Under the pieces are notes generated by a model. That model was not told the origin of the DNA and did not search any database. It was given only the letters and a program-made list of their open reading frames with translations. A DNA stretch of 64,000 nucleotides. Origin: Burkholderiales bacterium (GTDB taxonomy: Bacteria > Pseudomonadota > Gammaproteobacteria > Burkholderiales > Burkholderiaceae_C). The translations under genes and the position numbers were made by a program. This document shows positions 35,621 to 51,917 of this stretch, piece after piece; position 1 is the stretch's first letter, and every line of letters starts with the position of its first letter. The stretch spans positions 5,888-69,887 of the forward strand of contig JBBQZG010000002.1 of the NCBI GenBank assembly GCA_038207945.1, read 5' to 3'.

Positions 35621-36232
35621 TTAGGGTGCAGCTGGCAGCAGTTGCCTCACATCCGCTGCCGTCAGCTCTGGTTTCGTGCCATAGCGGGTGAACAGACGCA
35701 GCCTGCCGGTGGTGTCATACACATAGCTGCCTGCCGTGTGGTCAATGGTGTAGCTGGTGGGCGTGGGGCCGTCAACTTTCTTGTAGTACACCTTGTAGTC
35801 TTTGGCCAGTGCGGCAGTTTTTTCTGGCGTGGTGTAAAGCGCCAAAAAACTTGGATCAAAAGCGGCCATATATTCCTTGAGCATCTCGGGCTTGTCACGC
35901 TCGGGATCGACCGAGACAAACAGGCCCTGAACGCGATCACCATCTTTGCCCAGCAGTTTTTTGATCTCGGCCATCTCGGCCATGGAGGTCGGACAGACGT
36001 CAGGGCATTGGGTGTAGCCAAAGAACACCATGACCACTTTGCCCCGAAAATCCTTGAGCGTTCGGGCTTGGCCATTGTGGTCAGTCAAGGCAAAGTCTTT
36101 GGCGTAATCGGCGCCAGTGATGTCAATCGCGGTGAATTTCTGAGCATCTGGTGAACATGCAGTAAACAGGACTGCAGCCGCCATCGCTATTGTGCAAGTT
36201 GCTATTGATTTAAGAGCGTTTCGTTTGTTCAT
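35621..36232 (-). CDS. SCO1/SenC copper chaperone lipoprotein
   Basis: Lipobox FTAC, FGYTQCPDVCP, SVDPERD, IDH. Confidence 0.93.
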   Translation of the reverse strand: MNKRNALKSIATCTIAMAAAVLFTACSPDAQKFTAIDITGADYAKDFALTDHNGQARTLKDFRGKVVMVFFGYTQCPDVCPTSMAEMAEIKKLLGKDGDRVQGLFVSVDPERDKPEMLKEYMAAFDPSFLALYTTPEKTAALAKDYKVYYKKVDGPTPTSYTIDHTAGSYVYDTTGRLRLFTRYGTKPELTAADVRQLLPAAP

Positions 36233-36270: not shown

Positions 36271-37170
36271 TCACACATAGTGGTCAATCAGCAGCGCGGC
36301 AAACAGCAGGCTCAAATGGATCAACGAAAAGCGAAAAGTTTTGCGTGCCAACAGGTCAGAGTATTCACGCCAGAGCCAGTAACCATGCAGGCAAAAGCCG
36401 GCATTCAACACCACAGCAGCCGCCAGATACAGCCACGAACTCATGCCGTAAATGAACGGCAACAGGCACGCTGCAAACAGGATGAAGGTATAGAGCAGCA
36501 CCATCAAGCGGGTGAACTCATTGCCATGGGTCACCGGCAGCATGGGCAGGCCGGATTTGCGGTAGTCTTCCACCCGGTAAAGCGCCAGCGCCCAGAAGTG
36601 CGGCGGTGTCCACAGGAAGATGATCAAAAACAGAATCAGGGCTTCCGGCCCCACGTTGCCCGCCATGGCAGCCCAGCCCAGCACCGGCGGCATGGCACCC
36701 GAGGCGCCACCGATGACAATATTCTGCGGCGTCAGGGGTTTCAAAATCAGGGTGTAAATCACCGCGTAACCGATGAAAGTGGCAAAGGTCAGCCACATGG
36801 TGAGCGGGTTCACGGCAAAGTACAGCAGCGCTGAACCAGCGGCGCACAAGGTGGCTGAAAACAACAGCGTTTGGCGGTCGCCCAATTCGCCTTTGGCGGT
36901 GGGCCGCCAGGCGGTACGCTTCATTTTGGCGTCAATGCTTTTTTCGATGATGCAATTGAACGCGGCGGCAGCACCAGCGACCAGCCAGATCCCCACGCAC
37001 GCCATGGCAGCCACAACGACCTCCTGCCACGACGGCACGCCAGGCACCGCCAGCACCATGCCAATCAAAGCGCAAAACACAATCAACTGAATCACACGCG
37101 GTTTGGTCAGCGCGTAATACTGGGAAAAGGCTGACATGGTGGCCGGTCGAGCAAGGGTACTCACGCACAT
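36271..37170 (-). CDS. cyoE: Protoheme IX farnesyltransferase (heme o synthase)
   Basis: [28 protein letters not shown]. Confidence 0.95.
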
Positions 37171-38363
37171 CTTTCAGGTTCAGGGTGCGCTGAGGTCAGC
37201 GCCTGGCGCGTCCCATGTTTGGCGGTCACTTCGTTGGACACCACCGACGACGCGTTGGCCAGGATCCAGGTTAACGTCAGCACCAGCGCAGCTGCTCCCC
37301 CGGTGTGCAACAGCGCAGCCAACAGCGGCCAGTCCAGGACCACATTGCTCAAGCCCGTGGCCAGTTGCAGGCCCACCAGCACCGCCAGCATCCGGCTATG
37401 ACCGCGCCAGCCCGCATGGCGATTGAGTTGCCACGCCAGCAGTGCAAGCACCGTCAGCACTAGGTAGGCCATCAGCCGATGCACATAGTGAATCGCGGTC
37501 AACGCGGCAAAGCTGATGGGTTCACCCCCTGATGTCATACCCAAATGCCGCCACAACTCAAAGCCCTGTGCAAAGTTCATCTCAGGCCACCAACGGTTTT
37601 GACACAGCGGGAAGTCGCTGCACGCCAGCACGGCGTAATTGGTGCTGACCCAGCCGCCCAGCAAAATCTGCACCCCAAGCAGTGCAGCAACGACACTGGT
37701 CCATCGTCGCAGTGAAACTGACAGGGGACGCCGCACTGGCATGGCGCCGCCGCGCACCGCCTGCACACATAACAAAACCAGCAGCACCAGCGCACCGGCA
37801 AGATGCAGCGTGACAATGGCGGGAAACAATTTCATGGTCACCGTCAAGGCCCCAAATGCACCTTGTACACAGACCCAGACCAGAGTGGCGGTGGCCCACC
37901 AAGGCGACAGGTCCGACAGGGCTTGCGGTTGGTGCAGGCGGACTTTTGCACGCCAGGCCAGCCAGCTTGTCACCGTCATCGCCACAATCAACGCCCCGAC
38001 ACCCGTGGCCAGATAACGGTGAACCATCTCGATCCAGGCTTTGGCTTGTGTCACCGGACCGGTCGGCATGGCGGCTTGTGCGGCAGCAATGGCGTGGTTG
38101 GCGCCCAGCGGTGAGGTGTTGCCATAACAACCCGGCCAGTCCGGGCAACCCAGGCCCGAATCGGTGAGCCGGGTAAAGGCGCCAAACAGTACCAGATCAA
38201 ACGTCAGAAACAGGGTAAACAGCCGCAACGCCTGCGCCCGTTGCAGCGGCGCGCTGTGACGCGTGCGCCAGAACACCCAAGCCAACGGTCCCAATGCCAG
38301 CAGTGCACCCACGCCCATCAGGCTGGCCAGTGGCGTCAGGTCGTAAAGGGGTTGAGCGTTCAT
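37161..38363 (-). CDS. ctaA: Heme A synthase COX15/CtaA
   Basis: [32 protein letters not shown]. Confidence 0.93.
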
Positions 38364-38374
38364 CGGGGTGTGCC

Positions 38375-39052
38375 TCAGCGCCCGGCCGGGTCCCAGGCCA
38401 GGGAAGCGCGCAGCAAGCGCTCCATGTCGCGCTTGGCCTTGGCTGCCGCTGCACTGTCCAGGCGCGAAGGAAACCGCATCATGGTGTTGCCCATCGGGTC
38501 CACCACATAAATGAAGTCTTGCTGGGCTTGACCGACAGGCGCAGGGAGCCAGGTGTTGAGCGTGTCTGCGTCCACCCGCAGTACCGTGGCACTGTCGTGC
38601 TTCAGGCTGGCGGCAAGTTTGGGGTCCACAGCAGCTTGGTCGTTGATCAGCCAGAGCCAGTCCATGCGGTCCATGTCTTTGCCCAGCATCAGACGAAACT
38701 GGCGCAAGACGGTGAGTTGTTTCTGACAGTCTTGCACACAAGCCCCCCCATCCACCTTGACCAGCAGCCACTGCGCTTTAAGGGAAGGCAACGGCACCTT
38801 GGCGCCATCCAGGCCACTGGCCTGTGCTTGCGGCACCGGACGCACCGGGGTAATCAGTTCCCCAAAACCGGCCTCCCCTTGCGGGCGCACCACGTAAAAC
38901 ACAAAGTAGGCTACCAGCACGGGCAGCGAGCACGCCAGCAGGATCGCCAACAGTTTCAAGCGCCCACTCAACACGGAACCAGCGGCTTCTCCGGGCTTGG
39001 GCAAAGAATGCACAGCCAGCCCCAACGTCTCATCTGTCCGTGGATGACTCAT
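38375..39052 (-). CDS. Conserved cox-cluster membrane protein (thioredoxin/SCO-like fold)
   Basis: GRLKLL TM, CVQDC, YVVDPMGNTMMRFP; between SURF1 and ctaA. Confidence 0.8.
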   Translation of the reverse strand: MSHPRTDETLGLAVHSLPKPGEAAGSVLSGRLKLLAILLACSLPVLVAYFVFYVVRPQGEAGFGELITPVRPVPQAQASGLDGAKVPLPSLKAQWLLVKVDGGACVQDCQKQLTVLRQFRLMLGKDMDRMDWLWLINDQAAVDPKLAASLKHDSATVLRVDADTLNTWLPAPVGQAQQDFIYVVDPMGNTMMRFPSRLDSAAAAKAKRDMERLLRASLAWDPAGR

Positions 39053-39759
39053 GAACCTTCACACTTGCGCAAACTGGCAAACAGATAAAACAACAGCAAC
39101 GCAGCTGCCATGCCAAACCATTGAAATGCGTAGCCGCGATGCATGCCCACACGATCTTCAGACGGTGCCCAGTGGCGCACCAACGTGTCGGAGGCATCGC
39201 CGCCGGTTTGCTGCAACACCACCGGTTGCAGAGGGTGACCAATCATCTTCTCGAACCGGGGCATGTCCACCCGCGACCACAGTTCGACCTGCACTTCGGG
39301 GTGGTCAGGCATCAAAAAGAATTTTTTGGTGGATGGCACCGTGGCCAGGCCAACAATCTGAACACGTCCTTCAGGTGTGGCAACCACAGGCAACACTGCG
39401 CGACCCTGGCTCCAGCCAACCCAGCCACGGTTCACAAGAATTCGGGTGTCACTGCCTTCAATGTGCAGCGGGGTAATGACGTGCACCCCAGGCTGACCAT
39501 TTTCTTGCCGGTTGTCCAGAAAAACCTGGTGTTGTGCCTCAAAAGTACCTGCTACTGCCAACGGCACGTCCTGCACAGCCTGTGGGTCGAGCAACTGGCC
39601 GGTAACCACCGTTGGGCCAAGCTGACCGCGAAGCGCGCGCTGAGAAAGCTCGGCAGCCAGGCGATCGCCCTTACCGCTTTGCCACAAGCCGAGGTAAATG
39701 AACATCACCATACCCAGCAACATGGCCAGGGTGGGAATCAACCGAATTTGAAAACGCAT
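39049..39759 (-). CDS. SURF1/Shy1 cytochrome oxidase assembly protein
   Basis: LGLWQ, LVNRGWV, HRGYAFQWF. Confidence 0.92.
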   Translation of the reverse strand: MRFQIRLIPTLAMLLGMVMFIYLGLWQSGKGDRLAAELSQRALRGQLGPTVVTGQLLDPQAVQDVPLAVAGTFEAQHQVFLDNRQENGQPGVHVITPLHIEGSDTRILVNRGWVGWSQGRAVLPVVATPEGRVQIVGLATVPSTKKFFLMPDHPEVQVELWSRVDMPRFEKMIGHPLQPVVLQQTGGDASDTLVRHWAPSEDRVGMHRGYAFQWFGMAAALLLFYLFASLRKCEGS

Positions 39760-39819
39760 GGGGTGCACGAGCCGATGGTAAGTGAGCATAATGCAGCGAA
39801 ACTTTTCAGAAAACCTGCA

Positions 39820-40026
39820 ATGCTGGCAAAAATTTTAATTCTGACGACTTTGGCACTGGTTTTGGTAAGCCTATTCAGTGCGCTTGCCATGCTGTTCAAG
39901 AGCGACGACCCCTCCAAGCGCAAACTGGTGGTGCAAGCCCTGACCGTGCGCATCAGTTTGTCGATTGGGTTGTTTATCGCCCTGCTGGCCAGCTTCTACT
40001 TTGGCCTGATCCCTGGCCGGGGGTGA
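39820..40026 (+). CDS. Twin transmembrane helix small protein (DUF2909-like)
   Basis: SLFSALAML...ALTVRISLSIGLF; usual opposite-strand position between coxC and SURF1. Confidence 0.8.
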   Translation: MLAKILILTTLALVLVSLFSALAMLFKSDDPSKRKLVVQALTVRISLSIGLFIALLASFYFGLIPGRG

Positions 40027-40095: not shown

Positions 40096-40959
40096 TTAAA
40101 GAATGTAAACAAACACAAACAAAATCAGCCAGACCACGTCCACAAAGTGCCAGTACCAGGCCACTGCTTCAAACGCAAAATGGTTGTGCTCTGAAAAATG
40201 CCCCTTCATGCTGCGCCCCAACATGACCATCAACATGATGGTACCCAGCGTGACGTGCAAGCCGTGGAATCCAGTCAGGATGTAAAAAGTGGCACCGTAA
40301 ACACCAGCGCCCAAGGTCAGGCCCAGTTCCGCGTAAGCGTGTGCGTATTCGTACACCTGGAAACCCATGAAGGTCATACCCAGTGCCACCGTCAGGGCCA
40401 AACCCCAATTCAACTGGCTGCGCTTGCCTTTGATCAGACCCCAATGGGCCCAGGTCAGGGTCGCCCCCGATGTCAACAGCAGCATGGTGTTGATCGCTGG
40501 AATACCCCAGGCATGCATCGGCGTGAAGGCGTCACCCATGGGCCCAGCACTTGGCCACGCACTGGTGAATTTCTCATAGGGTGTGAATATGGCCTCGTAG
40601 CCACCTAACTCGGGCAGTGAAATCTGGCGAATGTAATACAGAGCACCAAAAAAACAGGCAAAAAACATCACCTCAGAAAAGATGAACCACACCATGCCAA
40701 TGCGGTACGACCGGTCTTCCCATGCCGTGTAGGCACCACGCATGTTCTCACTGATCAAATCGCCAAACCAGCCCACCACCACATAGGTGATGAATCCAGC
40801 ACCCAGCAACATGCTCCAGAGGCCCTCTGGCGTACCGTTGATGCGGAAGATAAAGCCCAGCGCCAACATGAAAATACCCACCGACAAATACGTGGAGTAG
40901 TGGCTGGCCGCAGGCACAAAGTAGTGTCCGCGCGCAGCAGTTTGGGTTGCGTGAGTCAT
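40096..40959 (-). CDS. coxC: Cytochrome c oxidase subunit III
   Basis: FIFSEVMFF, TGFHGLHV, WYWHFVDVVW. Confidence 0.95.
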   Translation of the reverse strand: MTHATQTAARGHYFVPAASHYSTYLSVGIFMLALGFIFRINGTPEGLWSMLLGAGFITYVVVGWFGDLISENMRGAYTAWEDRSYRIGMVWFIFSEVMFFACFFGALYYIRQISLPELGGYEAIFTPYEKFTSAWPSAGPMGDAFTPMHAWGIPAINTMLLLTSGATLTWAHWGLIKGKRSQLNWGLALTVALGMTFMGFQVYEYAHAYAELGLTLGAGVYGATFYILTGFHGLHVTLGTIMLMVMLGRSMKGHFSEHNHFAFEAVAWYWHFVDVVWLILFVFVYIL

Positions 40960-40974: not shown

Positions 40975-41547
40975 TCAGCTTTTCGCCTTGATGGCTTCAA
41001 AAAAAGCGTAGGAGAGGGTCACCGTGCCCAAGTCACGGTCCAGCTTGGGGTTAACCACAAACACAACCGGCATCACACGGGTCTCGCCAGGCTGAAAGGT
41101 TTGCTGGCTAAAACAAAAACATTCCAGCTTTTCAAAATGCGCTGCCGCAACAGCGGGCGTCACGCTGGGAACCGCCTGTCCGACAAAGACCTGATTGGAG
41201 GTGTTTGTCACGGTGTAATTCATGCGCGAAATCGCACCTGGATGGATGCGGATAGAAAACTGGTCAGGCTTGAACGTCAATCCGACACCTGGCATGGAAT
41301 GGCTTAAAAACTCCACATTGACAGACCGGGACAAATCAACCTGGGTGTTTTGGTCTGCCAGCATGGCCACTTTGTTGGTTTTGCCATTGAGACCGGTGAG
41401 TTCACAAAACACGTTATACATTGGCACCATGGCAAAGCCAAAGCCAACAAAAAAAAGTGCCACAAACCCCAGCTTGACCGCCATGCGCAGGTTGCTGCGC
41501 TGGCGCTCAGCCGCCGTGGTGTTGGTCAAAACGGGCGATATTTCCAT
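40975..41547 (-). CDS. ctaG: Cytochrome c oxidase assembly protein CtaG/Cox11
   Basis: VPMYNVFCELTG, KLECFCF; start may instead be TTG 41529. Confidence 0.92.
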   Translation of the reverse strand: MEISPVLTNTTAAERQRSNLRMAVKLGFVALFFVGFGFAMVPMYNVFCELTGLNGKTNKVAMLADQNTQVDLSRSVNVEFLSHSMPGVGLTFKPDQFSIRIHPGAISRMNYTVTNTSNQVFVGQAVPSVTPAVAAAHFEKLECFCFSQQTFQPGETRVMPVVFVVNPKLDRDLGTVTLSYAFFEAIKAKS

Positions 41548-41672
41548 ATAGAACCTAAAAAGACCGCCAACACAATGACCCCAAATACATAACCCAAGCG
41601 CTTGTTGCTGCGCTTGCGCTTGTCCCACTCCTGCGCGTCAAAACCATTTTTTTGCGTTTCAGGCAATTTCAT
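41526..41672 (-). CDS. 48-aa cytochrome oxidase small assembly protein
   Basis: Manual translation MKLPETQKNGFDAQEWDKRKRSNKRLGYVFGVIVLAVFLGSIWKYRPF; basic NxRLG motif plus one TM, between coxA and ctaG. Confidence 0.72.
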   Translation of the reverse strand: MKLPETQKNGFDAQEWDKRKRSNKRLGYVFGVIVLAVFLGSIWKYRPF

Positions 41673-41692
41673 GAGCGTCTCAATCAGGTGGC

Positions 41693-43297
41693 TCATTTGA
41701 TGACAGGAGGGGTCTCAAAGGTGTGGTACGGGGCAGGCGAAGGCACGGTCCATTCAAGACCTTCAGCGCCTTCCCAAGCCTTGTCACCCGCTTTTTCACC
41801 ACCTTTGATGGTCTTGTAAACGTTGTAAACAAAGATCAGGTGAGATGCCCCCAAGATGAATGCGCCGGTACTGGAGATCATATTCCACTCGGTGAACATC
41901 ACCGGGTAGTCAGGAATACGGCGTGGCATACCAGCCAGACCGACAAAAAACTGGGGAATGAAAGTGATGTTGAAACCCACCACAGCAACCCAGAAATGCC
42001 ACTTGCCCAGCGTTTCATTGAGCATGTGGCCAGTCCATTTGGGTAACCAGTAATACACCGCCGCCATCGCACCCATCACCGCAGACGGGTAAAACGCGTA
42101 GTGAAAGTGCGCCACCAGAAAGTAGGCGTTGTGGTACTGCGGATCAGCGGCAGCGTCCGATAACGCCAGACCAGTCAAGCCACCCCAGCCAAACAGCACC
42201 AAAAAACCCAGGGCAAACAGCATGGGCGTCTCGAACGACATCGAACCCTGCCAGATCGTGGCGATCCAGCAGAAGAACAGCACTGCCAGCGGGAACGAGA
42301 TCGCCATAGTGATGTACATGAAGTAGATCTGGCTGCCCAGCGACATGCCACTGGTGAACATGTGATGCGCCCACACCACCAGGCCCAGGCCAGCAATCGC
42401 CCAGAAGGAATACACCTGTGCCTTGTAGCCATAAATGGGCTTGCGGGCAAACGCCGAAAACACATGGGGCAGTGCGCCGGCAATTGGCAGCAGCAGCACG
42501 TACACCTCAGGGTGACCCATGAACCAGAAAATGTGCTGCCACAACACGGGGTCACCACCGCCAGCGGCGTTGAAGAAGTGGGTGCCAAAGTGGCGGTCCA
42601 TCAGCACCATGGTCACGCCACCGGCAAACACCGGCATGATGGTGATCAGCAACACGGCTGTCATCAGGAAACCATGTGCAAACAACGGCATTTTCATCAG
42701 CGTCATGCCCGGGGCGCGCATGTTCAAGATGGTCACAATGACGTTTATGGAGCCCAAAATGGAAGACACACCCAGCATGTGAATGGCAAAAATGGCAAAG
42801 TCCATACCCCAGCCGCTCTGAATGGACAGGGGCGCGTACAGCGTCCAACCCGTGTCCACAGCGCCAGGCCCAACGCCCATGATCCCCAGGAAAAACGGCA
42901 GTGTCAGCATGATGGCAGCAGGCGGCAAAATCCAGAAACCCCAGTTGTTCAACCGCGGCAAGGCCATGTCAGGCGCGCCGATCATCATGGGCAACATGTA
43001 GTTGGCCAAACCGGTGGCCACTGGCATGGCAAAACCAAACACCATGATCAACCCATGCAGCGTGATGAGTTGGTTGAACAACTCGGGCTGCACAAACTGC
43101 AATCCAGGCTGAAACAGCTCAAGGCGCACCACCAAAATCATGGCACCACCGACAAACAGCATGGTAAAACCAAAAATCAGGTACATGATTCCGATGTCTT
43201 TGTGGTTGGTGGTTTCCAACCAGCGGAGAAATCCGCCCTTGTAATGCCCGTCGTGTGAATCACCCACCGGCAAGCCATGTGCCATATCGTGTGCCAT
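41693..43297 (-). CDS. coxA: Heme-copper oxidase subunit I, A1-type, K-channel residues absent
   Basis: TNHKDIG, LHG, PDMALPRLNN, GHPEVY, WAHHM, HFHY, MPRR; PLAVL where PTGVK is canonical. Confidence 0.95.
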   Translation of the reverse strand: MAHDMAHGLPVGDSHDGHYKGGFLRWLETTNHKDIGIMYLIFGFTMLFVGGAMILVVRLELFQPGLQFVQPELFNQLITLHGLIMVFGFAMPVATGLANYMLPMMIGAPDMALPRLNNWGFWILPPAAIMLTLPFFLGIMGVGPGAVDTGWTLYAPLSIQSGWGMDFAIFAIHMLGVSSILGSINVIVTILNMRAPGMTLMKMPLFAHGFLMTAVLLITIMPVFAGGVTMVLMDRHFGTHFFNAAGGGDPVLWQHIFWFMGHPEVYVLLLPIAGALPHVFSAFARKPIYGYKAQVYSFWAIAGLGLVVWAHHMFTSGMSLGSQIYFMYITMAISFPLAVLFFCWIATIWQGSMSFETPMLFALGFLVLFGWGGLTGLALSDAAADPQYHNAYFLVAHFHYAFYPSAVMGAMAAVYYWLPKWTGHMLNETLGKWHFWVAVVGFNITFIPQFFVGLAGMPRRIPDYPVMFTEWNMISSTGAFILGASHLIFVYNVYKTIKGGEKAGDKAWEGAEGLEWTVPSPAPYHTFETPPVIK

Positions 43298-43341
43298 TGC
43301 CAACTCCTTCTACTGAATTTCTGAAATTTGATGCGTCGTGA

Positions 43342-44202
43342 TCACTGTGCCTTGGCGACCACCGCTTGGGTGACTGGCTCAACGGCTGCCGTAGGCACTG
43401 CTGGGGTTGCAGCGGCTTTTTTGCTGGCCAACCATTTGGTGAATTCTTCCTGACTCACCACGTTAACCACCACTGGCATGAAACCGTGCTCCTTGCCGCA
43501 CAATTCAGAGCACTGGCCGCGGTAAGTGCCCGTTTTTTCAACTGTGGCCCAAAACTCGCGCAGGAAGCCCGGCACCGCGTCACGTTTAACACCAAAAGCC
43601 GGCACCCACCAGCTATGGATCACGTCGTTCGACGTGGTAATGAAACGAATCTTTTTCCCCACCGGCAGCACCAGCGGGTTGTCCACTTCCAGCAGGTAGT
43701 GCTCACCTTTGGCGGCGCCAGCATCGATCTGGTCACGTGGTGTGCTCAGCCGGCTGGTGAAGCTGACACCTTCAGCTGGAAAGTCGTATTGCCACAGCCA
43801 CTGGCTGCCCGTGACCTTGACCACCAGTTCTGCATCGGTCTTGGTGTCTTCATACATCACAACGGCATGGTAGGCCGGGATGCCAAACACCACGTAATCA
43901 ATGAATGCCAGCACAAAAAAAGGTGATAGCACCCACAGCCACTGCTTGCGATTGCCTGGCCCGCTGTAAGCGGCGGCCTTGTACCCGGCACCCTTGCGGT
44001 GCGTACGAAACGAGTAGATCAATGCGCCAAGCACCAGGAAGAACATGATCAAAATCACGACCATCACCAGGTTGTGCATGTGCAGCGTCTCCCGTGCAAT
44101 CGGCGTCACGGGCTCAGGAAAATTAAATGCATAACCAGCCAACGCTGCAGCCGAGCCTAACACCAGCCAAATGCCCAAGCCAAACTTGTACATGCTACGC
44201 AT
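43342..44202 (-). CDS. coxB: Cytochrome c oxidase subunit II (CuA), no fused cytochrome c
   Basis: GSQWLW, DVIHSWWVP, CSELCGKEHGFM. Confidence 0.95.
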   Translation of the reverse strand: MRSMYKFGLGIWLVLGSAAALAGYAFNFPEPVTPIARETLHMHNLVMVVILIMFFLVLGALIYSFRTHRKGAGYKAAAYSGPGNRKQWLWVLSPFFVLAFIDYVVFGIPAYHAVVMYEDTKTDAELVVKVTGSQWLWQYDFPAEGVSFTSRLSTPRDQIDAGAAKGEHYLLEVDNPLVLPVGKKIRFITTSNDVIHSWWVPAFGVKRDAVPGFLREFWATVEKTGTYRGQCSELCGKEHGFMPVVVNVVSQEEFTKWLASKKAAATPAVPTAAVEPVTQAVVAKAQ

Positions 44203-44252: not shown

Positions 44253-44266
44253 TTGATATTTATCAA
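44253..44266. promoter_or_regulatory. FNR-family binding site upstream of coxB
   Basis: Perfect TTGAT-ATTT-ATCAA, 3 nt downstream of a minus-strand TAGAAT (44275-44270). Confidence 0.8.
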
Positions 44267-44357: not shown

Positions 44358-44585
44358 TCATGGGGTCCAAAAAATGCGCGCGGTGGGCCACACCAGCAGC
44401 AGCACAATCACCACCGGCGCGATCGTCCAGGCGATTTCAACCGCAAGCGAGCTGTGAAAATTGACGCGCTCTGGCGTCTCACCCCGGTGGTGCCGCCAGG
44501 CAGCCCAAAGCAAGGCGGCAAACGAGACCATAAAAATCAGCAGGCAGGCCACCATCAGCGCCCAGCGAAAACCAAACTCAGTCAT
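44358..44585 (-). CDS. Stand-alone cytochrome c oxidase subunit II transmembrane-domain protein (75 aa)
   Basis: Two TMs with FHSSLAVEIAWTIAP; GGGAGG RBS; start overlaps the end of the upstream gene. Confidence 0.78.
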   Translation of the reverse strand: MTEFGFRWALMVACLLIFMVSFAALLWAAWRHHRGETPERVNFHSSLAVEIAWTIAPVVIVLLLVWPTARIFWTP

Positions 44586-48706: not shown

Positions 48707-49366
48707 TTATTTCAGGCGGTCGCGCTGAATTGTTTGCATTTCACTGGGCAAACCACCCACGTAATCGGCAAGCACCTTCAATTCCGAATTGGAGAACTGC
48801 TTGGCGATGCCGCCCATGATGGCGTTGCTGCGACCAATCATGGGTTTGTCGTTGATTTTGTAGGACCGCAGGGCCACAAACAAATAGTCGCTGTGCTGGC
48901 CGGCAATCTTGGGGTAGGCGGGGTCAATCGGCTTGCTCAAATTTGCCCCATGGCATGAGGCACACCCCCCCTTGATGACAAGCTCTGCCGCTTTTGCCGA
49001 ACCTTCGGCAGCCGCCGCAGGCAATGTGGCACCGGTGCCGCTACCTGAATAGAAGGCAGCCAGGTCAGCAATGTCCTGCTCGCTCAAACTGGAGGCCAGC
49101 GTGCGCATGGAAGGGTGCTTGCGTTCGCCGGTTTTGTAGGCATGCAGTGCCGCCCGAATGTACCCGTCGCCCTGACCGTAAATTTTGGGTACCTGATGCA
49201 CCTCAGGAAAGCTGATGTGGTAGCCTTTGATGCCGTGACAGCCGACACACAGCGCATTTTTTTGAGACCCTGCCGCGGCATCGCCCTTGATACCTTGCGC
49301 GTAGGCGGCCGCGGTGGTCGCACAAGCGACAAGCAGAGACGACACGGTTAACAGAATTTTTTTCAT
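48707..49366 (-). CDS. Dihaem cytochrome c4
   Basis: Signal peptide, CVGCH and CASCH, PKIAGQ. Confidence 0.92.
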   Translation of the reverse strand: MKKILLTVSSLLVACATTAAAYAQGIKGDAAAGSQKNALCVGCHGIKGYHISFPEVHQVPKIYGQGDGYIRAALHAYKTGERKHPSMRTLASSLSEQDIADLAAFYSGSGTGATLPAAAAEGSAKAAELVIKGGCASCHGANLSKPIDPAYPKIAGQHSDYLFVALRSYKINDKPMIGRSNAIMGGIAKQFSNSELKVLADYVGGLPSEMQTIQRDRLK

Positions 49367-49401: not shown

Positions 49402-49415
49402 TTGATAAATATCAA
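49402..49415. promoter_or_regulatory. FNR-family binding site upstream of cytochrome c4
   Basis: Perfect TTGAT-AAAT-ATCAA, 3 nt downstream of a minus-strand TATAAT (49424-49419). Confidence 0.8.
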
Positions 49416-51267: not shown

Positions 51268-51498
51268 ATGACCGTGACCACCGCCGCCGTTTTCATGTCG
51301 GGCAACAGCCAGGCCGTGCGTTTGCCCAAGGCGTTTCAGTTGCATTCCAAGCGCGTCACCATCGAGCGCCGGGGCGATGAAATCGTGTTGCGTGAAGCGC
51401 CTCAAACGATGAAAGAGTTTCTGGACAAGTTGCCCATCATCGAAGACTGGCCTGACATCGGTGACGAAGGCCCGGCGGAGCCTGTGGCAGCTTGGTGA
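51268..51498 (+). CDS. vapB: VapB antitoxin (AbrB-type)
   Basis: VFMSGNSQAVRLPKAF. Confidence 0.9.
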   Translation: MTVTTAAVFMSGNSQAVRLPKAFQLHSKRVTIERRGDEIVLREAPQTMKEFLDKLPIIEDWPDIGDEGPAEPVAAW

Positions 51499-51917
51499 CG
51501 GACATGACGAGCGCCACTGACCGTTATCTACTTGACACCAACATCTGGAGCGCGTTGATTCGTCGCTCCAACGCGGGACTGGTCAAACGCTTTGAAGCAC
51601 TGGAACGTAGCCGCCTTGCCCTGTCACCGATTGTTTTGGGTGAGCTGCAGGTGGGCTACTACAAAGGTGACCGCACGCCCAAGCGACTGGCGGTGATCGA
51701 GGCCATTCGTTCCAGCTCTGAGTTACTGAGCATCAACAGTCGCATTGCTGACACCTACGCGCAACTTCGCTCGCAGCTGGAACTGGCCGGTACCCCCATC
51801 GGGCCCAACGACACCTGGATCGCCGCCGAAGCCCTGCACCACAAACTGGTGCTGGTCACAGACAACACCAGCGAGTTCTCCCGCGTGCCCGGCCTCAAGG
51901 TCGAGAACTGGCTTTGA
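51495..51917 (+). CDS. vapC: VapC PIN-domain toxin
   Basis: YLLDTN, GEL, IGPNDTWIAA, LVTDN..EFSRV..LKVENW. Confidence 0.93.
   Translation: MTDMTSATDRYLLDTNIWSALIRRSNAGLVKRFEALERSRLALSPIVLGELQVGYYKGDRTPKRLAVIEAIRSSSELLSINSRIADTYAQLRSQLELAGTPIGPNDTWIAAEALHHKLVLVTDNTSEFSRVPGLKVENWL

Follow-up and report, generated by a model that had tools for sequence, protein, structure and literature searches.

The window analyzed here, a 64,000-nucleotide stretch of a Burkholderiales genome (assembly GCA_038207945.1, contig JBBQZG010000002.1, positions 5,888 to 69,887), carries the genes for the two core subunits of an aa3-type cytochrome c oxidase whose K proton channel has lost its characteristic residues. 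We call such enzymes "K-less," as opposed to "canonical" enzymes with Lys362. The closest named records are Rhodoferax metagenome-assembled genomes (MAGs; 94-96%).

43342..44202, minus strand: coxB, CuA subunit II, 286 aa, with a five-residue insertion carrying Asp102 in helix 2
41693..43297, minus strand: coxA, subunit I, 534 aa, A1-derived, with K362, T359 and S299 lost

Residues were assigned with a HMMER alignment to Rhodobacter sphaeroides 1m56 and Paracoccus denitrificans 1ar1 that is gap-free over 173-481; the R. sphaeroides (Rs) number, used below unless CoxA or CoxB is named, equals the CoxA number plus 22. CoxA has all six His ligands (81, 262, 311, 312, 397, 399), E264 (E286), Y266 (Y288), D110 (D132), the D-channel residues N99, N117 and N185, and R459/R460, and CoxB has the CuA ligands H196, C231, E233, C235, H239 and M242. 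The original prediction, made from the sequence alone, had described these sites as intact, which is borne out, as are T359L, K362L and S299P at the codons that it gave, by the gap-free alignment and a codon check. It had named four coordinated substitutions, the fourth being Gln for Glu101 of subunit II; all four are there, but S365C, M316Q, A356S, D412N, H472F, Asp403 and the Asp of subunit II had been overlooked.

42467..42469, minus strand: P277 (S299)
42416..42418, minus strand: Q294 (M316), gained in the lineage, 99% of 93
42296..42298, minus strand: S334 (A356), 100% of 93 versus 14% of canonical sequences
42278..42289, minus strand: L337 (T359; CTG, 42289-42287) to L340 (K362; CTG, 42280-42278)
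42269..42271, minus strand: C343 (S/N365), 100% of 93
42155..42157, minus strand: D381 (Rs position 403), periplasmic end of helix IX
42128..42130, minus strand: N390 (Mg ligand D412 lost)
43942..43944, minus strand: CoxB Q87 at the E101 position, anchored on the following Trp and Pro
43897..43899, minus strand: CoxB D102

Residue frequencies were determined for 93 K-less and 66 canonical beta/gamma nonredundant subunits I and for 86 K-less and 78 canonical subunits II. The six His ligands, D132, N121, N139, N207, E286 and W172 are found in 100% of the K-less subunits I, and Tyr288 of the helix VI HPEVY motif is kept in 99%. Position 299 is Pro in 90%, position 359 is Leu, Val or Ile in 99% (Thr survives in 1/93), and position 319 is Ala in 35%. 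H472, which is Phe in CoxA, is lost in the set; at the Mg/Mn site, H411 and subunit II E254 are kept and D412 is Asn, a ligand that 8% of canonical rows also lack. Asp403 is present in 93/93 K-less sequences; the 66 canonical ones have hydrophobic residues at this position, with no Asp among those listed. Ser356 presumably matches S309 of ba3 oxidases.

Subunit II has changed in parallel. Its helix 2 is longer by five residues, including an Asp, in 86/86 K-less sequences, and an acid occurs in that stretch in 2/78 canonical ones; in CoxB, Asp102 lies inside a continuous predicted helix (residues 85-119; predicted local distance difference test [pLDDT] about 80-87). His41 (88%) and His112 (95%) have been gained, and the H96-like His is gone. 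At the E101 position, 58% of the 86 sequences have Gln and 42% keep Glu, so that the predicted E101Q exchange holds for the window (Q87) and not as a trait of the lineage; the subgroup to which the window belongs has lost both E101 and H96.

We compared this enzyme with the signatures of the known heme-copper oxidase (HCO) families. The D channel, CuA subunit II and subunit III of the A1 subfamily are all present, and its K-channel set (K362, T359, S299 and S365, plus subunit II E101) reads Leu, Leu, Pro, Cys and Gln. The K-channel analogue of ba3 oxidases (Tyr299, Thr362 and Ser/Thr359, from the ba3 row of PMC8239418 Table 3) is absent, the residues being Pro, Leu and Leu. Acidophilic iron oxidizers have K-less A2 enzymes marked by loss of the CuA Glu ligand; here E286 and CuA Glu233 are present. 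In nitric oxide reductases (NORs) of the HCO superfamily, the active-site Tyr gives way to a Glu, Asn, Gln or Asp ligand; CoxA has the Tyr. The subunit II profile TIGR02866 scores 172.3, above its cut-off of 147.7, and CoxA scores 658.3 bits against the CtaD/CoxA equivalog TIGR02891, below the cut-off of 670.75. An AlphaFold model of CoxA (pLDDT 73.8) matches 2gsm_A with a Z score of 43.5 and a root mean square deviation of 2.5 Å over 489 residues, as an A-family subunit I. The original prediction had allowed for a Lys or Thr shifted to an equivalent place in helix VIII; by sequence there is none. No altered heme A synthase was seen, the Glu and His motifs of CtaA being intact. By its K-channel residues CoxA falls outside the canonical A1 enzymes, though it very likely functions as they do.

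Among the 120 top-ranking homologue clusters listed, 108 are without Lys362, having Leu (103) or Met (5) in its place. The lineage, whose identity to canonical beta/gamma copies is about 60%, spans Rhodoferax, Methylophilaceae, Rhodocyclaceae and some Gallionellaceae, with members in Rhodoferax, "Ca. Aalborgicola," Methylophilus, Methylotenera, "Ca. Methylopumilus," Dechloromonas, Azonexus, Zoogloea, "Ca. Accumulibacter," Gallionella and Nitrosomonadales MAGs. In a quick, unrooted IQ-TREE analysis of 46 rows, the 21 K-less rows form one side of a branch with a support of 99 (Shimodaira-Hasegawa-like approximate likelihood ratio test, SH-aLRT). The helix VI-VII and helix VIII (K-region) columns had been dropped, and near-duplicates and six likely chimeric or mixed cluster sequences omitted. 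P0032, P0083, P0085 and P0096 mix K-less and canonical segments and are probably assembly chimeras; they were left out of the residue counts and the tree.

Median pairwise ratios of nonsynonymous to synonymous substitution rates (dN/dS; Nei-Gojobori, pairs with dS of 0.1-1.5) for coxA in Rhodoferax were 0.041 for 21 K-less and 0.043 for 16 canonical sequences. They were 0.030 and 0.019, respectively, in Methylophilaceae, and 0.105 in high-GC Rhodocyclaceae. All that speaks for a decaying gene or a local sequence error is the loss of textbook residues. That the pattern is common to so many of the best clusters, that dN/dS is 0.03-0.10 in three families and that the enzyme is retained in genomes of 1.2-1.6 Mb leave this explanation a negligible probability. 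Given the 99-supported branch obtained without the K-region columns and dN/dS values equal to those of canonical genes, the K-less enzyme is a distinct conserved lineage and not a product of decay. The original prediction of a distinct subtype thus held, and the alternative that it had considered, changes confined to one genome under relaxed selection, did not.

K loss is recurrent in the A family, often alongside new polar residues. Among 150 distant representatives, 134 have intact His sites, 40 without and 94 with the Lys. An acid in helix VIII occurs in 16/40 K-less and 0/94 Lys-bearing sequences, Ser or Thr at 356 in 24/40 and 2/94, and Asp403 in 2/40 and 1/94. P0230 and P0244 represent a distant lineage, also K-less, that has Asp403 together with Ser356 and Glu353 and has apparently converged on Asp403. 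The K362M/T359V A1 enzymes of Thiodiazotropha (L070-L072) were rejected as members, since they have no Gln316, Cys365 or Asp403 and branch separately; symbionts of this type likely represent a separate K loss. Four deep-branching members (L032, L033, L272, L273) have lost Lys362 and kept Thr359, and are candidate intermediates.

The two genes are embedded in a complete assembly cluster, with a further small gene upstream.

44358..44585, minus strand: COX2 transmembrane hairpin, 75 aa, stand-alone, overlapping the stop codon of a bioC-like gene
41526..41696, minus strand: small membrane open reading frame (ORF), 56 aa
40975..41547, minus strand: ctaG/cox11, CuB assembly
40096..40959, minus strand: coxC, subunit III
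39826..40026, plus strand: DUF2909 twin-helix small protein
39049..39789, minus strand: SURF1
38375..39052, minus strand: PA0111-like thioredoxin-fold protein (profile match below cut-off)
37161..38354, minus strand: ctaA, heme A synthase (start approximate)
36271..37170, minus strand: ctaB, heme O synthase
35621..36232, minus strand: copper chaperone of the Sco type (CxxxC motif seen in the sequence itself; the profile matches the thioredoxin fold only)

The 56-aa ORF, which has no Pfam or NCBIfam match, accompanies the K-less module in Comamonadaceae. Elsewhere in the window, a PIN-domain (VapC-like) ORF was read from the sequence at 51492-51917 (plus strand), between an acetyltransferase gene and a VWA gene.

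Typing of 81 same-genus genomes by identity, with residues verified where loci were fetched, gave 19 of the K-less type, 50 canonical, 1 with only a bo3-like enzyme and 11 with none; no genome had both types. The coxB-to-SURF1 block is 32-59% identical between K-less and canonical Rhodoferax, versus 61-89% for the flanking bioC, ctaA, ctaB, sco and rpoH genes, which occupy the same position in both locus types. A CtaA+CtaB tree gathers the K-less Rhodoferax into a single group (support of 99), which also takes in G201, a genome with a foreign Lys-bearing cox module at the same locus, nested among K-less relatives. From the identity pattern of the flanks and this grouping of G201, the history reads as a single in-place replacement of the native oxidase by the K-less module, later swapped back in G201. 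Another Rhodoferax, G206, likewise has a foreign Lys-bearing module (loci of the two genomes: L171, L172, L191).

K-less and canonical copies occur together in three genomes (G123, G182, G297). The K-less type is the only A-family enzyme found in Zoogloea ramigera NBRC 15342, Dechloromonas sp. H13 and Methylophilus sp. QUAN, the last of which has only the K-less A1 plus a cbb3 oxidase. Three K-less A1 copies were found in 81 Gallionellaceae genomes, all with the signature of the lineage. Many Methylophilaceae (e.g., L195, L068) have the K-less cox cluster about 7 kb from ccoN on the same contig.

Of the 19 same-genus genomes of the K-less type, 18 have the stand-alone hairpin, as do G201 and G206; in G203, which yielded no A1 enzyme, it occurs in two pieces. 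No separate gene for it was found in the remaining canonical genomes, nor was it found near K-less operons outside Comamonadaceae. Its distribution follows the exchange of oxidases at this locus. Its H96-like and E101-like residues are each present in 67/68 homologues, and its dN/dS is 0.20. The hairpin is likely what remains of the displaced native coxB, kept under purifying selection and still serving some role. We do not favor the idea that it donates E101 in trans, since it also adjoins the Lys-bearing modules of G201 and G206, which have their own Glu, and was not found near K-less operons outside the family.

Upstream of coxB lies a putative regulatory site.

44253..44266, unstranded: perfect FNR-type palindrome, one of 19 in the genome
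44270..44275, minus strand: conserved hexamer of the -10 type, 3 nt away from the FNR box

Of the 27 distinct K-less loci from Comamonadaceae, 23 have a box with at most two mismatches, and in 22 of these a TAnAAT hexamer stands just upstream; as these loci are kin, the counts are not independent. No box with at most one mismatch was found in 19 canonical locus rows. Since the box overlies the predicted start site, the predicted operator suggests that coxB is repressed at low O2. Repression by FNR has been proposed for the aa3 oxidase of Accumulibacter (PMC6446978). The same source reports that the ctaD of Accumulibacter UW-1 groups with Dechloromonas and rises in the aerobic phase; its expression data for UW-LDO-IC were set aside, as the ctaD primer hand-translates as the canonical helix VI type. 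A second perfect FNR-type box (49402-49415) is found 36 nt upstream of a gene for a diheme cytochrome c (48707-49366, minus strand), which is a possible electron donor.

The conserved FNR box and the in-place replacement fit a high-oxygen O2 reductase, and we are confident that O2 is the substrate of the K-less enzyme. The original prediction had also proposed an H2O2 reductase or an NO-handling enzyme. The peroxidase activity retained by the R. sphaeroides K362M mutant (PMC7601700) and the coexistence of K-less and canonical A1 copies in three genomes would accord with such a specialized role. It is nonetheless improbable: Tyr288 and the three CuB His are kept and a NOR-type ligand is absent, whereas HCO-type NO reductases are described as lacking the Tyr (PMC11214002). 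The two-way in-place swap with a native oxidase and the predicted FNR repression also argue against it.

The other terminal oxidases of K-less genomes bear on the same question. The window's own genome (87% complete) also encodes cbb3, a divergent C-family enzyme and bd oxidase; no second A-family enzyme was found in it. In a set of 80 genomes chosen for their K-less enzyme, in part by score class, ccoN is over its cut-off in 74, and 5 others have a divergent C-family enzyme with a helix VII Tyr, three of them together with AOX. This divergent oxidase (L113, that is G000:C116, and L206-L210) has 550-560 aa and a CcoO-like and a monoheme partner; five Methylophilaceae genomes yielded no other C-family enzyme. 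Two candidates for a genome with the K-less enzyme as sole oxidase were rejected. In G258, ccoG is present. In G171 no ccoN, ccoO, bd or AOX gene was found, but ccoG lies at a contig start and cbb3 is probably unassembled; the genome, a methylotroph MAG, has a second, sNOR-like HCO in which Asn replaces the Tyr (L224, G171:C56), along with a small partner of the CuA type. Across 121 Methylophilaceae genomes, the sole HCO is a canonical-scoring A1 in 21 (12 were checked, all with Lys; most belong to one streamlined group), a cbb3-scoring enzyme in 6 and a K-less copy in none. The lack of a convincing genome dependent on the K-less enzyme alone would suit the H2O2 or NO role. However, ccoN was also found in 67 of 80 control genomes (74 with a canonical A1 and 6 without A1), so that cbb3 is equally common beside canonical enzymes; the pairing is not specific, and we rejected it as a sign of dependence.

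The K channel of canonical enzymes feeds the chemical protons of the reductive phase (PMC10341450, PMC8509429). As oxidase activity is abolished in K362M (PMC7601700), some compensation is needed. The invariant gains suggest a rebuilt route rather than use of the D channel alone, and we tentatively put first a replacement route through Asp403 of subunit I, Asp102 of subunit II and Ser356, with the usual electron path and D channel. Electrons would pass from cytochrome c to CuA, heme a and the heme a3/CuB center, and the D channel would serve pumping and the oxidative phase as usual. The reductive-phase protons that normally pass Lys362 would reach Tyr288 through these three residues, the base of the route being the pair of newly gained, invariant aspartates where subunits I and II meet, and O2 would be reduced under well-aerated conditions. 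By helix register and known structures, Asp403 and Asp102 would face each other at the interface above Ser356, close to it and to Tyr288. The cytoplasmic entry is eroded, with Gln for E101 in 58%, the H96-like His gone and hydrophobic residues at 359 and 362.

The predicted position of both aspartates is the periplasmic half of the membrane, and the reductive-phase protons may therefore come from outside. Uptake from that side would move less charge per electron and would ease turnover against a high proton-motive force. A hybrid oxidase of this kind, with D-channel pumping and part of the chemical protons drawn from outside via the inter-subunit aspartate pair, trading energy yield for turnover, is an unlikely but consequential variant.

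The replacement route has two close rivals. The D channel might carry all chemical and pumped protons, as the original prediction had suggested, the new residues being structural or redox-tuning. The full conservation of D132, N121, N139, N207 and E286, the hydrophobic residues at 359 and 362 in nearly all members and some helix II changes (query positions 78 and 94) that sit near the D channel are compatible with this. Yet in canonical enzymes the reductive-phase chemical proton is described as barred from the D channel (PMC10341450), K362M is inactive (PMC7601700), and no change is seen in the named D-channel residues, the invariant gains being clustered around the former K region and at the I/II interface. 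We do not favor this reading and consider it somewhat doubtful.

The other rival, a little less probable still, is a lysine-free channel from the cytoplasm via Cys365, His/Gln300, Gln316, Ser319 and Ser356, resembling the KC channel of C-family oxidases. Of the KC positions that would be polar (300, 312, 316, 319, 327, 359 and 365), 300, 316, 365 and often 319 are polar in K-less sequences, with Gly at 312 and a hydrophobic residue at 359; Gln316 (99%), Cys365 and Ser356 (both 100%) are nearly or fully invariant, M316 faces K362 in the canonical channel (PMC9687966), and 300, 316, 319 and 365 are KC-channel columns of PMC8239418 Table 3. Against this, position 359, common to the K and KC channels in that table, is almost always Leu, Val or Ile, position 319 is often Ala, E101 and H96 are lost in the window's subgroup, and Cys would be the sole ionizable residue along the path.

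Several observations count against the replacement route through the aspartates or against a main role at high O2. E101 is kept in 42% of K-less subunits II, and Gln316, Ser319 and Cys365 match C-family-type channel positions, both of which favor an inside route. The aspartates could be structural or could bind a metal in place of the lost D412, and CoxA model residues 381-392, which cover Asp403, are below a pLDDT of 50. The FNR box was not seen in most Methylophilaceae or Rhodocyclaceae loci, and among the 80 K-less genomes there was no convincing case of a sole oxidase. Finally, the K-less cox operon of Ferrigenium straubiae was the least expressed HCO operon under the conditions covered, anoxic and microoxic growth (bioRxiv 10.64898/2026.01.22.701106).

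The enzyme resembles canonical A1 oxidases (R. sphaeroides 1M56/2GSM, P. denitrificans 1AR1; about 47% identity) in fold, catalytic and D-channel residues, the RR pair, CuA, subunit III and the CtaA/CtaB/CtaG/Surf1/Sco cluster. It differs in that K362, T359, S299, S365 and D412, and E101 in most members, are replaced, and in Asp403, Gln316, Ser356, Cys365 and the helix 2 insertion with its Asp. The K362M mutant (3OM3) shares the nonionizable residue at 362, and five natural clusters carry the same Met; the mutant is inactive with O2, whereas the natural lineage is strongly selected and has many linked gains. The B-family ba3 and C-family cbb3 oxidases also reduce O2 without a channel lysine, but they have no D channel and keep Thr or Ser at 359, whereas the window enzyme keeps the D channel and E286.

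K loss is already catalogued in other A-family lineages, and one case was noted in a 2026 preprint. Degli Esposti et al. list K-less A1/A2 enzymes of Acidithiobacillus, Thioclava, CyoCAB, Elusimicrobia, Methylacidiphilum and Halobacteriovorax (bioRxiv 2020.03.01.968255; PMC8239418 Table 3). In these, Lys354 (P. denitrificans numbering) and often Glu78 of subunit II are replaced and the D channel stays, as here; unlike the present lineage, they are mostly A2 or deep-branching and keep Thr or Ser at 351. That table has no beta/gamma "subtype ab" entry without Lys and none with Pro291 plus Leu351, and the window lineage is not listed in it. The preprint case is the F. straubiae operon coxBA11C, an A-family enzyme whose two core subunits both lack K-channel residues; the gene order is the same, and it stands beside cbb3. 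It probably belongs to the window's lineage, since all three K-less A1 copies of the Gallionellaceae genomes carry its signature. Section 6.6 of the preprint mentions this one genome in passing, with no clade, compensating residues or biochemistry (bioRxiv 10.64898/2026.01.22.701106). In the literature covered, which did not extend to subscription journals, no biochemical study of the K-less lineage was found. Physiological work of the 1980s reportedly dealt with cytochrome aa3 in Methylophilus methylotrophus, although no such paper was found.

It has long been asked why A-family oxidases should need two proton channels. Here a natural lineage lives without Lys362, whose removal kills the model enzymes, and has been exchanged with the canonical enzyme at one and the same locus. 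Its five invariant gains are direct targets for mutagenesis, and cultured strains carry the K-less enzyme. If the hybrid mode of proton uptake were true, the rule that heme-copper oxidases reducing O2 take their substrate protons only from inside would no longer hold. The lineage also has a bearing on assumptions about energy yield in those methylotrophs and sludge bacteria whose "aa3" is presumed to be a standard full pump.

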